Positions 12,346-64,000 of a stretch of DNA of 64,000 nucleotides are shown here, one piece after another. The DNA is from Candidatus Woesearchaeota archaeon (GTDB lineage: Archaea > Nanobdellota > Nanobdellia > Woesearchaeales > JAFGPW01). Position 1 is the stretch's first letter, and the number at the start of each line of letters is the position of its first letter. The notes under the pieces are model-generated. The model searched no databases. It saw only the letters and a list, made by a program, of their open reading frames with translations, and was not told the origin of the DNA. Where the stretch lies: positions 22,956 through 86,955 of the forward strand of contig JAFGPW010000007.1 in the NCBI GenBank assembly GCA_016935985.1, in the 5' to 3' direction. The position numbers and the translations under genes are program-made.

Positions 12346-13029
12346 ATGGGGGCAGCCACTTACCCGAAGGAAGCGAGTACCTTGGCCTATATCGTCAAAG
12401 ACTCGGCTCCGCCCCTCAACCCGGCATCCCTGCTCAATCCCTTCAACAGCAAGGAGTATCATCAGACCGTCATGCTCACCAACGATGACGAAGGGTTCCA
12501 GAACGCGCTCGCGTTCGTCAGCCGCCGGCTCAGGTCGTACGGCATCCCGCCAGATGAGCTCGAGGACCGGCTCCAGGCGGTGGGAGAGGCGGTGCAGAAC
12601 ATCCAGCTGCACACGAACAAGAGGGACAACGCCCATGGCCTGTACGTCGGCGTGCGACGGGTGACCGAAGACTACGTCATCGTGGCGCTCTTCGGCGACG
12701 GGCCCGGGAAGCTCGACATCACGCGGTTCATGGACAACCTCGCGCGGACGACCGACCTGCAGAAGCGCATGAAGGCGGCGGCGACCCCGCAGGAGAAGCT
12801 CAGCCTCCTCACCGAGGCGGAACGGTTCAGGGGTGGGATGGGCGGCTATTTCATGAGCGCGCACAGCGACCTCGTGGGATTCATCCTCTTCCCCGACTCA
12901 GGAGCGCCGGACCCGCATGACATGTATCAGAGCGAGAAGACAAACCCGTTCGGCTTCAGGTTCTACCTCGGGCCCTCCAACCCTGAGACGATACTCGGGT
13001 TCTGCATCAGGAAGGAGTTGCCCAACTAG
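12346..13029 (+). CDS. GHKL ATPase-fold protein resembling SpoIIAB/RsbW-type serine kinases
   Basis: N-box AVGEAVQNIQLH, G1 FGDGPG and G2 RFRGGMGGYFMSAHSD occur in the SpoIIAB order. TATA-like GATTTTTAAATTA lies about 25 nt upstream. Confidence 0.6.
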   Translation: MGAATYPKEASTLAYIVKDSAPPLNPASLLNPFNSKEYHQTVMLTNDDEGFQNALAFVSRRLRSYGIPPDELEDRLQAVGEAVQNIQLHTNKRDNAHGLYVGVRRVTEDYVIVALFGDGPGKLDITRFMDNLARTTDLQKRMKAAATPQEKLSLLTEAERFRGGMGGYFMSAHSDLVGFILFPDSGAPDPHDMYQSEKTNPFGFRFYLGPSNPETILGFCIRKELPN

Positions 13030-13143: not shown

Positions 13144-13154
13144 GCATATAAGCC
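13144..13154 (+). promoter_or_regulatory. TATA-like box (GCATATAAGCC) for the 13176 gene
   Basis: 22-32 nt upstream of ATG 13176. Confidence 0.4.
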
Positions 13155-13175: not shown

Positions 13176-13649
13176 ATGGCAAGGCGCATGACGACCATGA
13201 TCCCCACGCGCTCCAGGGACGAGTTCAAGGCGCGCCTCGCGCACGAGATACGCCGGCACGTCATCGGCGGGAGGAAGAGCATCACCTTCATCGACTGCGC
13301 GAACTCGCTCTCGCCCTACCTCTTCAAGAGGAAGGAGCTGCCCCGCATCATGGACCGCGTCTTCTTCGCCCGCATCGAGACCGCGTACGACCTCGCCGAC
13401 CAGCTGAAAGAGCTTCCGGCAGACCCATACTTCAGGAGCTCGGGAGCGCTCTTCGTCTCCGACTGGCGTCACCTGCTCGACGATCTCCCGCGCGACGAGC
13501 AGGAGCGCCTGACCGAAGAGATCGAGGACCGGCTCGAGCTCCTTAGCGAGCGGCACGGGAAGCCGGTGACCGTCCTGGAGGTGGTGCGCAGATCGGCCAT
13601 ACAGTCCCGCCTAAGCGCTACGTCATCTACGACAAGTTGTCAGACATGA
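13176..13649 (+). CDS. Degenerate, shortened family-B DNA polymerase palm-like ORF (inference); a RecA-like core is the alternative reading
   Basis: ITFIDCANSLSPYLF resembles motif A (DxxSLYPS). RIMDRVFFA resembles motif B (KxxxNSxYG). ALFVSDWR sits at the motif C position. Its stop overlaps the next ATG (ATGA 13646-13649). Confidence 0.45.
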   Translation: MARRMTTMIPTRSRDEFKARLAHEIRRHVIGGRKSITFIDCANSLSPYLFKRKELPRIMDRVFFARIETAYDLADQLKELPADPYFRSSGALFVSDWRHLLDDLPRDEQERLTEEIEDRLELLSERHGKPVTVLEVVRRSAIQSRLSATSSTTSCQT

Positions 13650-14173
13650 TGAGGTTCGCGGTACGGCGACGCACCAGCCCGAACGTCATCAAGGCCTTCC
13701 AGGAGGAGGTGATCGCCGGGCTCGGCGAGGTCTACCGGGAGGACGACCTGCGCGTGCTGCTGGCGCGGGGGGTCGGCATCCTGAAGCGGCACCTCGCGAT
13801 GCTCAGGCACGCGACAGCAGAGGACCTCGCGATGACGGTGCGGCTGCAGAGGGTGCAGTACAGGGTCGACTGCCCACAGAAGGCGGTGGCCGAGAGGCTC
13901 CGCGCATCAGGCAAGCAGGTCAACGTCGGCGAGAGCGTGCGCTACGTCATCGAGGACCATGCGGAGAAGCGGTATGTCCCGCTCGAGCACTATCGCGGCG
14001 GGTTCGATGCCGCGCGCTACGCGCTGCTCATGAAGGAGGCGCTCGTGCACGTGTTCCTGCCATTCGCAATCGACACGTCCGATATCGACCGGCTGCTCGC
14101 GCGGGAGCGCCAGCTGACGATCGGTGAGGCGCTCGGGACCGCGCAGAGGATCAGGGTGCTCGTCGCAGCATAA
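13646..14173 (+). CDS. Family-B DNA polymerase thumb-domain-like ORF (gene remnant or split mini-PolB)
   Basis: FAVRRRTSPNVIKAFQEEV...CPQKAVAERLRASGKQVNVGESVRYVIED...DAARYALLMKEALVHVFLPF parallels LEFVRRDWTELAKTFQ...PPHVKAARKL...IDYAHYIEKQLKPIADSVLCFF of the true PolB at 62860-64000. A KRYVIYD (KxY motif) lies in the same frame just upstream of the ATG. Confidence 0.55.
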   Translation: MMRFAVRRRTSPNVIKAFQEEVIAGLGEVYREDDLRVLLARGVGILKRHLAMLRHATAEDLAMTVRLQRVQYRVDCPQKAVAERLRASGKQVNVGESVRYVIEDHAEKRYVPLEHYRGGFDAARYALLMKEALVHVFLPFAIDTSDIDRLLARERQLTIGEALGTAQRIRVLVAA

Positions 14174-14205
14174 CGCTTTTATAGTGGATGTCGTTCACCG
14201 GCATC

Positions 14206-14811
14206 ATGACGATTAAGGCGATCATCTTCGATGTCGGCAATTGTTATCTCACCGGCTCGATCAACGCGTTCTTGACCCGCGCGTTCGACTACCTCGGTAT
14301 CGATGATCGGACGTTCCACAGGGATGAGATAGTGTTTGATCCTGACTACAATAAGGGCCTGACAACGATCAAGGATAGCTTTGAGAAGATGTTTGTGAGG
14401 AGGCTCAGCGATAAGCAGCTGGAGACGTTGACAGGATTCTGGACCACCACCTGGACTCTCGACCCTGGGATGGCGAAGCTTGTCGCTTCGCTCCGTAAAC
14501 GCTACCGGCTCGCGATTCTTTCCGTATCCGATGAGGCCAACTCAACGAAATACAAGGAACGCGGTTGGTATGACGGCTTTGATCCCGTCGTGCTCTCCCA
14601 TGAGGAAGGCATCCTCAAGCCAGACAGGAGGATCTATGAGATTACGCTCGAGCGTCTCGGCCTGCCTGCGCGAGAGTGCCTGTTCATCGATGACCAGAAG
14701 AAGAACGTCAATGCGGCCGAGAGGCTCGGCATGCACGGCATCCTCTATACGACACTCCAGAACCTTATTGAGGACCTCAAGGAGCACGGTATCGAGTTCC
14801 AGGTTCAGTAG
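14206..14811 (+). CDS. HAD-superfamily hydrolase
   Basis: MTIKAIIFDVGN (motif I variant), LSVSD, FIDDQKKNVNAAERLG (motif IV). TATA-like GCTTTTATAG lies about 25 nt upstream of ATG 14206; the track start at 14188 abuts the TATA. G+C is somewhat lower than in neighbouring genes. Confidence 0.8.
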   Translation: MTIKAIIFDVGNCYLTGSINAFLTRAFDYLGIDDRTFHRDEIVFDPDYNKGLTTIKDSFEKMFVRRLSDKQLETLTGFWTTTWTLDPGMAKLVASLRKRYRLAILSVSDEANSTKYKERGWYDGFDPVVLSHEEGILKPDRRIYEITLERLGLPARECLFIDDQKKNVNAAERLGMHGILYTTLQNLIEDLKEHGIEFQVQ

Positions 14812-62859: not shown

Positions 62860-64000
62860 TCAGAACTCGAACAGGCTCTTCTGGTCATGGTTCCTGACCA
62901 GGCTGTCGAAGTCGGTGCCGAAGAAGCAGAGCACCGAGTCGGCGATGGGCTTGAGCTGCTTCTCGATGTAATGCGCGTAGTCGATCCTGCTCGTGAGCAT
63001 CTCGACCGGCTCCGGCCCGTTCTCAGTCATGTAGTACTCGATGATGCTCGAGCTGAGCTTCTTGAGCTTTCTCGCCGCCTTCACGTGGGGCGGCGTCGTC
63101 TTGACGTACTCGTCCAGGCTCTTCCTGATCGCCTTGCGGTAGACGAGCTGGTCGTCGTACTTGCCGGATCGGACGTCCCCGACAAACTTCCGGACGTAGT
63201 CCTTGACCTCCTTCTTGTGGAAGATGCGGTCGAGGATCGCGAGCTGGAAGGTCTTGGCAAGCTCTGTCCAGTCCCTGCGCACGAACTCCAGGCCCGTGAA
63301 GTCGATCTCCTCTTTCCCGTCCTTCTCGAGGATGCCCGCGTAGCGCTTCTTCGCGCCCTGGTCGGAGCCGCGCAGCTTCGGCATCAGGAAGCGGATAAAG
63401 GTCTTCTCGAACTCGAGCTCGAGGAAGTTGTCGCGCTTGTACTCCCTCTTCACGAGGTCCTTGTAGTAGGTATTGATGTAGTCCTGTATCTCCCTGCCGA
63501 TCGCCTCCGCTTTCCTGCTGGTGTCGACGCCGGTCTTCACGAACACCGAATCGGTGTCACCGTAGATGACCTCGTAGCCGAGCTCGCGTATCTTCTCGGA
63601 TGTGAGCTTGATGAAGTGCTGGCCGAAGTGGGTGATCGCGTTCGCCATGTCGACCGAGTAGAACCTGCAGGCGGGGTTCGCGAGCACGCCGAAGAAGGAG
63701 TTCATGGTGATCTTGATGGCGTAGGATGCTGCCCGGTCCTTGCGCCGCTTCGCCGCGTCGCGGCTCTCCCAGAGGGACTGGATGAGCCCAGGCAGGATCC
63801 CGTCCTCGTTCCTGAAGCGCGTGCCGTTCGGCGCCGTGATCTCGCCCTCGGGATCGAATGAGAGGGGATCGATGTTGAAGGTCCGGATGATGGAGGGGTA
63901 CAGGCTCTTGAAATCGCACACGATGATGTAGTCGTAGATGCCGGGCTTCGACTCCATCACGAAGCCTCCCTTGATCCGCTCGTCACGCTCGCTGTAGGAG
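62860..64000 (-). CDS. polB: Family-B DNA polymerase, C-terminal half (gene continues beyond the right edge)
   Basis: DFKSLYPSII (motif A), KITMNSFFG (motif B), IYGDTDSVFV (motif C), KKRYAG (KxY). The frame stays open to position 64000. Confidence 0.93.
   Translation of the reverse strand, partial: SYSERDERIKGGFVMESKPGIYDYIIVCDFKSLYPSIIRTFNIDPLSFDPEGEITAPNGTRFRNEDGILPGLIQSLWESRDAAKRRKDRAASYAIKITMNSFFGVLANPACRFYSVDMANAITHFGQHFIKLTSEKIRELGYEVIYGDTDSVFVKTGVDTSRKAEAIGREIQDYINTYYKDLVKREYKRDNFLELEFEKTFIRFLMPKLRGSDQGAKKRYAGILEKDGKEEIDFTGLEFVRRDWTELAKTFQLAILDRIFHKKEVKDYVRKFVGDVRSGKYDDQLVYRKAIRKSLDEYVKTTPPHVKAARKLKKLSSSIIEYYMTENGPEPVEMLTSRIDYAHYIEKQLKPIADSVLCFFGTDFDSLVRNHDQKSLFEF

Follow-up and report, generated by a model that had tools for sequence, protein, structure and literature searches.

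The PolB2 operon and the locus in the window

PolB2 is encoded in an operon together with arCOG07300 and an inactivated RadA (Makarova, Krupovic & Koonin 2014, PMC4104785). The products, iRadA (the inactivated RadA), PPB2 (arCOG07300) and PolB2, are predicted to form a translesion "mutasome" (Timinskas, Timinskas & Venclovas 2025, PMC11791011). PPB2 carries an N-terminal "MGRT" arm, a SRAP gene lies nearby, and AlphaFold models place the parts of PolB2 that would bind iRadA and the PPB2 arm around amino acids 240-254 of the S. islandicus protein (PMC11791011). Some haloarchaea carry extra pairs of iRadA and PPB2 without PolB2 (PMC4104785).

The locus described here lies in what we call the window, the whole 64-kb stretch of DNA that was analyzed. 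We read it, with a probability of about 0.8, as a degraded copy of the known archaeal and bacterial PolB2 (Dpo2-type) translesion operon iRadA-PPB2-PolB2. A sequence-only reading of the same DNA had proposed instead a miniaturized family-B polymerase, split into two translationally coupled ORFs. Both plus-strand ORFs, and the ATGA at which they overlap, are present as that reading described them (Table 1). The TGA stop codon of ORF1 occupies 13647-13649 and the ATG of ORF2 13646-13648, and a TTG at 13637, in frame with this ATG, provides an alternative ORF2 start. Stop/start overlaps of this form are the classic layout for translational coupling, a point that speaks against regarding ORF2 as a remnant.

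Table 1. Features of the locus, with positions numbered along the window
Feature	Position	Strand	Description
TATA-like box "catataag"	13145-13152	+	-31 to -24 from the ORF1 ATG; putative iRadA promoter, leaderless-type spacing
ORF1	13176-13649	+	157 aa; iRadA gene, apparently intact
PPB2 remnant, codons 1-23 (N-terminal arm IGHTVPPKRYVIYDKLSDMMRFA)	13592-13660	+	ATG start replaced by ATC, 13592-13594
Out-of-frame overlap, iRadA 3' end / PPB2 5' end	13592-13649	+	58 nt
ORF2	13646-14173	+	175 aa from ATG, as callable today
Approximate deletion junction	13661-13666	+	PPB2 codon ~23 fused in frame to PolB2 codon ~545
PolB2 thumb remnant, including stop codon	13661-14173	+	~aa 545-716 of a ~720-aa PolB2

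The GC content at third codon positions (GC3) is 0.91 in ORF1 (up to 13546) and 0.90 in ORF2; it ranges from 0.73 to 0.94 in neighboring genes, and the window as a whole has 62% GC. The codon-position GC signature of both ORFs is that of genuine genes of this genome. The TATA box that had been reported ahead of ORF1 is indeed found, and its sequence and spacing suggest that it may serve as the iRadA promoter; TATA-like boxes at the same distance also precede the GHKL-like gene and the HAD ATG at 14206. Inspection of the sequence upstream of ORF2 revealed neither a TATA box nor a Shine-Dalgarno sequence of its own. PADLOC and PHROGs returned no matches for the locus, and there is no Pfam match on record for either ORF. 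The 64-kb window contains no SRAP gene, no second PolB2 and no second PPB2. The HAD neighbor has only distant DPANN and bacterial matches, at 50% identity or less.

The iRadA gene and its family

To find relatives of the two ORFs, an ORF1+ORF2 fusion was used as the phmmer query in an exhaustive search of 1.84 billion representative proteins, and the 107 hits were of two kinds. About 28 are stand-alone proteins of 105-205 aa that align with ORF1 end to end, with E values down to 9e-20 (P0006); full-length family-B polymerases of ~690-730 aa match the thumb part (P0003, E=1e-33; P0005, E=3e-26). Word-indexed protein searches with ORF1 and ORF2 recovered only the query itself, a tblastn-confirmed scan of GTDB genomes with ORF2 yielded nothing, and no relative exceeding 41% identity appeared in any collection searched. 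That value is the identity between ORF1 and the iRadA encoded at locus L044 (E=4e-32), which serves below as the reference operon. Scored with a leave-one-out family HMM, ORF1 obtains 149 bits against a family median of 130. ORF1 is therefore a complete, separate gene and a full-length member of a protein family of ~145 aa.

This family is hard to recognize by sequence. ORF1 has no match in Pfam, NCBIfam or PDB sequence searches, the profile of its family finds nothing relevant in the PDB, and Pfam searches with all 25 family members return scattered chance matches only; distant homologues that occupy the same operon position show Rad51/KaiC matches below the Pfam threshold. The structure model is more informative. 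Built by AF2 with the family alignment, it reaches a pLDDT of 90.6 and a pTM of 0.81, and the top 50 Foldseek matches in the PDB are nearly all RadA, Rad51, Dmc1 or paralogues of these; a single RecA and a single DnaC are also among them (E from 6.5e-7; TMq 0.52-0.72; ~146-175 aligned columns for the 157-aa protein). As modeled, the fold of ORF1 is that of the RadA/Rad51 ATPase core without the N-terminal helical domain. The Walker A motif ([AG]xxxxGK[ST]) is absent from ORF1 and from 25 of 25 family members. The DPANN-type iRadA family thus escapes Pfam, NCBIfam and PDB sequence searches, and it is recognized only through gene context and structure prediction.

The sequence-only reading had placed polymerase motifs A, B and C in ORF1 and had listed a RecA-like core among the outcomes that would speak against it; a RecA-like core is what the Foldseek comparison returned. 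Some signs of a polymerase can be found by eye or in pairwise alignments: "GALFVSDW" in ORF1 can be aligned with the PolB2 motif C region "HAIVDSLW", and a few of the phmmer alignments to full-length PolBs cross the junction into ORF1 (P0053, query 79-307). Profile comparison contradicts them. By hhalign, the ORF1 family matches PolB2 with a probability of 0.18% (E=0.33), over a segment that lies outside the palm. Joining ORF1 to ORF2 adds at most 1 bit to the NCBIfam PolB score and improves no PolB profile score.

Gene order in relatives provides the context. L044 encodes the ORF1 homologue at 1395-1844, followed by a 90-aa ORF at 1796-2068 and a PolB of 716-721 aa at 2087/2102-4252, and in L043 all three genes lie within 7 kb. 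A PolB alignment scan of GTDB genomes produced 80 loci, from DPANN archaea, loci labeled "Methanosarcinales" and many bacteria. With the ORF1-family HMM, the gene is found immediately upstream of PolB2 in L047-L052, and several bacterial loci give weak matches. The PPB2 HMM locates the small gene between iRadA and PolB2 in these archaeal loci, again with weak matches in many of the bacterial ones. The order iRadA, PPB2, PolB2, with all genes in the same orientation, is found in L044, L047 and L048-L052; in the window, iRadA is followed by remnants of the other two. The relatives' operons encode an iRadA of ~145-170 aa, a helical PPB2 of ~90-110 aa whose arm starts MGHT, and a PolB2 of ~720 aa, and PPB2 often begins before iRadA ends. 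In L048-L052 and L109 the operon has SRAP genes beside it. We found no other truncated operon of the window's kind. The iRadA of the window may be an orphan that is being lost, or it may be the partner of another copy elsewhere in the genome.

The PolB2 thumb, the PPB2 arm and the junction between them

The assignment of ORF2 to a polymerase thumb, made earlier from the sequence by eye, is borne out. ORF2 matches positions 515-647 of 665 of the NCBIfam model NF004416 (E=6.7e-16) and positions 546-708 of a PolB2 HMM (E=5.5e-50). The Pfam model DNA_pol_B reaches no better than E=0.05, and a PDB sequence search with ORF2 found no relevant match. Aligned to amino acids 526-706 of the L044 PolB2, the thumb is 40% identical over 181 aa (E=8e-42). 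The AF2 model of 13592-14170 (pLDDT 83.8, with the first 11 residues disordered) matches in Foldseek the thumb of archaeal PolBs in the PDB, such as the 9N, KOD and Pab polymerases.

The thumb had been identified through parallels with the window's own PolB, and these do not hold up: BLASTP finds no significant similarity between either ORF and that protein (E=1.2-3.7 for ORF2). The resident PolB (62863-64000, minus strand) retains intact DFKSLYPS, KITMNSFFG, YGDTDS and KKRYAG motifs, and its identity to Woesearchaeota PolBs is 61-64%. The family-B thumb encoded by ORF2 belongs to the PolB2 clade and is not a copy of the resident enzyme.

Nothing else of the polymerase is present. The palm, with the aspartates of motifs A and C, is absent, since the PolB2 HMM covers only the positions given above. 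Nothing in 13029-14173 matches PolB2 positions 1-545, which leaves no fingers (motif B), N-terminal or exonuclease(-like) domain, and the same HMM detects no N-terminal part of PolB2 elsewhere in the 64-kb window. With palm, fingers, N-terminal and exonuclease-like parts all lost, a polymerase cannot be made.

The thumb itself shows no visible decay: it stands in a 208-codon open frame, and with a thumb-only HMM it scores 175 bits, like the intact relatives (162-179 bits). This indicates either that the deletion is recent or that the fragment has been retained. An old pseudogene would look worse, which is an argument against a remnant. Two short database hits, P0004 and P0009, were checked as possible members of a family of stand-alone thumb proteins and did not support one. 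Both are thumb-only hits on short contigs: P0004 is located at a contig edge, and P0009 lies on a contig of 771 nt, too short to judge, where upstream stops cut its PolB-like frame.

The DNA that leads into the thumb derives from PPB2. Read in the ORF2 frame upstream of its ATG, it encodes Q-IGHTVPPKRYVIYDKLSDMMRFA-VRRRTSPNVIKAFQ, and 15 of the 23 residues of the arm are identical to amino acids 1-23 of the L044 PPB2 (MGHTLPPKRNIIYGKLNDLKRFA; E=5e-10). The PPB2 HMM matches the window at positions 1-27 only, of ~105 (E=4.4e-5), after which thumb sequence follows. The conserved N-terminal arm (MG[RH]T...) is thus present, with ATC at the Met codon, and the trimerizing three-helix body of ~70 aa is missing from the window by the same HMM. 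The stretch PPKRYVIYD, previously interpreted as the KxY motif of a polymerase, belongs to this arm. In PolB2 the equivalent of KxY is "PVPSSYYGV" (L044 aa ~525-533), a stretch that precedes the HMM match and falls in the deleted part. Following the stop at 13544-13546, the first start codon in the PPB2 frame is the TTG at 13637; with the PPB2 start now ATC, this TTG and the ATG at 13646 are therefore the only usable starts.

Per-frame GC3 changes frame near 13590-13605, because iRadA and PPB2 overlap there out of frame. The same arrangement is seen in L044, with an overlap of 49 nt (1796-1844). A -1 frameshift in a single ancestral ORF, by mutation or programmed slippage, was considered and dropped once the switch was recognized as this conserved overlap; there is no slippery heptamer or homopolymer at the site.

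Similarity to PPB2 stops at "RFA" and the PolB2 thumb begins at "VRRR", with the PolB2 HMM match starting at amino acids 38-39 of the ORF that opens at 13547. The junction base is known only approximately, because the comparison rests on 40% protein identity. Relative to L044, about 1.87 kb (~1.9 kb) is missing: PPB2 from codon ~24 to its end, the spacer, and PolB2 codons 1 to ~544, or roughly 75% of PolB2. In our reading, a deletion of this size removed most of PPB2 and the N-terminal, exonuclease-like, palm and fingers domains of PolB2, along with the KxY region and the aspartates of motifs A and C. It left the PPB2 arm continuous with the thumb in one reading frame. Since then the ATG that started PPB2 has changed to ATC, and the first ATG left in frame, at 13646, overlaps the iRadA stop by chance.

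We infer that the fusion ORF is a non-functional remnant, its frame kept open by the recency of the deletion and the high GC content of the DNA, and that the locus can probably no longer make a PolB2 mutasome. The split between the ORFs, which had been thought to be maintained rather than the result of random decay, is read here as what is left of an operon, with the ATGA overlap incidental. The further proposal of a relic of a PolB-carrying element survives in part. A relic of a PolB gene is present; the element is replaced by decay of a chromosomal operon, there being no mobile-element genes on record in the 16-kb neighborhood.

Other readings and comparison with known systems

The thumb-only ORF might be a functional gene that has been retained, its product made by termination-reinitiation at the ATGA and working with iRadA. 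The thumb is a DNA-duplex-binding domain, here with a degenerate C-terminal PIP-like tail, and one possible role of such a protein is that of an accessory that binds DNA or the clamp, another that of a competitor. The open frame with its normal codon-position GC signature would be expected of a retained gene, as would the HMM score within the range of intact relatives, the confidence of the structure model, and an ATGA that overlaps the stop of an intact iRadA with its own TATA-like box. We nevertheless consider this unlikely. The search of 1.84 billion representative proteins yielded no second thumb-only example, ORF2 has neither its own promoter nor its own Shine-Dalgarno sequence, and losing the PPB2 start resembles decay rather than redesign. 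Moreover, the parts around amino acids 240-254 of the S. islandicus PolB2, which bind iRadA and the PPB2 arm in the published models, correspond to the region deleted in the window (PMC11791011). Somewhat more doubtful still is a thumb kept as a small protein coupled to iRadA through the ATGA, which would create a new non-catalytic DNA- or clamp-binding pair from an exapted polymerase domain.

It is quite improbable that the deletion arose in assembly or represents a minority variant, and that the genome itself carries an intact iRadA-PPB2-PolB2 operon at this place. A 20.6-kb Logan contig agrees with the window over the 16 kb compared, with 0 mismatches. Only one sample carries the sequence, and this contig and the window's own 163.6-kb contig possibly derive from the same reads, which leaves some room for an artefact. 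However, the junction has no repeat or homopolymer that could invite assembly collapse, and the PPB2 start, changed independently from ATG to ATC, is in keeping with a locus that is truly decaying.

Divided family-B polymerases exist: Methanothermobacter has a split, two-subunit enzyme of which both halves are kept and assemble into an active polymerase, and in one archaeal lineage thumb-only subunits work in trans. By analogy, and given how undecayed the thumb looks, a complete PPB2 and the first three quarters of PolB2 could be encoded elsewhere in the genome, with the thumb supplied in trans. We regard this as very improbable, as an in-frame fusion to 23 PPB2 codons marks a deletion rather than a clean split, the 64-kb window has no N-terminal part of PolB2 and no PPB2 beyond the arm, and no such split occurs among the PolB2 loci examined. 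The original proposal, a non-catalytic mini-PolB of two coupled ORFs with degenerate palm motifs, KxY and thumb, is refuted: besides the hhalign result and the negligible gain from concatenation, ORF1 has a RadA/Rad51 fold, its homologues coexist with complete PolB2 in relatives, and the supposed KxY stretch is the PPB2 arm.

Gene callers would list two "hypothetical proteins" here; our analysis identifies them as an iRadA gene followed by a ppb2'-'polB2 fusion remnant. Motif matching by eye can turn a gene wreck of this kind into a seeming "mini-polymerase". The locus indicates that Woesearchaeota-like DPANN archaea have PolB2 operons and can lose them by internal deletion, a mode of loss that fits the published view of the PolB2 system as dispensable, and it offers a natural example of an iRadA that has outlived its polymerase.

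Among known systems, the split polymerase of Methanothermobacter resembles the locus in having a separate ORF for the C-terminal part of a PolB alone; it differs in that the window shows no N-terminal half, and its fragment bears a deletion scar running through the neighboring gene. The haloarchaeal pairs share with the window an iRadA that persists without a functional PolB2 adjoining, but they keep a complete PPB2, whereas here PPB2 is reduced to 23 codons without a start, followed by a polymerase thumb fragment. The PolB2 (Dpo2) mutasome operon is matched in gene order, orientation, an iRadA core without ATPase motifs, the PPB2 arm and a PolB2-type thumb, and full operons of the same three families, often with SRAP adjacent, occur in DPANN relatives (L044, L047-L052). 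Compared with that operon, the window has lost ~1.9 kb comprising most of PPB2, ~75% of PolB2 and all catalytic parts; its PPB2 arm, now without a start codon, runs into the thumb and reads (M)GHT rather than the MGRT of the published family, and there is no SRAP, Orc1/Cdc6 or DUF72 neighbor. Only iRadA, one gene of the three, is complete. Set beside these systems, the locus adds one more example of a known operon, here in a broken state in a Woesearchaeota-like DPANN genome, and is a case of ordinary gene decay.

Overlapping iRadA and PPB2 reading frames

The gene for the inactivated RadA (iRadA) overlaps the remnant of that for the small helical protein PPB2 out of frame by 58 nt in the window, and in the related locus L044 the corresponding overlap is 49 nt. 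Many members of the iRadA family share a conserved C-terminal tail, W-A-T-x-Y/F-x-L, which we found to be the conserved PPB2 arm, MGHTxPxKR, read in the alternate frame. The iRadA tail may thus have been conserved as a side effect of selection acting on PPB2.

Coordinates of features in the window and related loci
Feature	Location	Strand	Remarks
Canonical family-B polymerase, C-terminal 379 aa	window 62863-64000	minus	DFKSLYPS, KITMNSFFG, YGDTDS, KKRYAG
HAD hydrolase, start region	window 14176-14208		start probably ATG 14206 (MTIKAIIFD...) rather than 14188
ORF upstream of iRadA	window 12346-13029		HATPase_c_2 match below threshold
iRadA/PPB2 overlap	window 13592-13649; L044 1796-1844		out of frame
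PIP-like site, thumb remnant	window 14101-14130		QLTIGEAL
PPB2 starts	L043 3314; L044 1796; L048 ~9688; L050 ~9700; L051 ~6460		
SRAP genes	L048 8008-8769; L049 6211-7002; L050 12160-12837; L051 5167-5832; L052 5049-5741; L109 7590-8255		MCGR...
PolB2 3' part	L128 1-771		771-nt metagenome contig

Features of the PolB2 clade

Alignment of PolB2 from L043, L044 and the homologous proteins P0003, P0005, P0007 and P0012 revealed a cluster of cysteines, CxCC...C, that immediately follows motif A and is invariant in this clade. Most of these proteins also carry a C-terminal PIP-like sequence, Q-x-x-[LM]-x-E-Y-[FVC]. Neither the thumb remnant in the window nor the PolB2 of L044 (QRLMLAPL) has the aromatic pair at this site. 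On contig L128, the PolB-like frame is broken by stop codons ~100 nt before its predicted start; this could be another truncated PolB2 or, in a contig of only 771 nt, an assembly end.

Resident polymerase, lineage and flanking genes

The resident family-B polymerase, apparently active to judge from its sequence, is 61-64% identical to PolBs of Woesearchaeota, a similarity that assigns the window to a Woesearchaeota-like DPANN archaeon. GC content in the window is 62%, unusually high for Woesearchaeota-like DPANN. PolB and PolB2 operons that most closely resemble those of Woesearchaeota also occur in several MAGs from GTDB that bear the title 'uncultured Methanosarcinales archaeon' (including L049, L050, L131, L134 and L136); these titles may be wrong.

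Downstream of the broken operon, the favored HAD hydrolase ATG is preceded at a distance of 22-30 nt by the TATA-like sequence cttttatag. The ORF upstream of iRadA matches HATPase_c_2 (anti-sigma-factor-type GHKL) with E=1.5e-5 and 25.4 bits, the cut-off being 27.4 bits; in flanks read by eye, no counterpart was seen beside the operons of L043, L044, L048, L050 and L051.

Comparison with published operons

No SRAP gene is present within the window. In six relatives (L048-L052 and L109), SRAP genes adjoin the PolB2 operon, as they lie near PolB2 operons in published examples. A distinction concerns the PPB2 N terminus, which is MGHT in the DPANN-type operons L043, L044, L048, L050 and L051, whereas the motif reported for the family is MGRT (PMC11791011).
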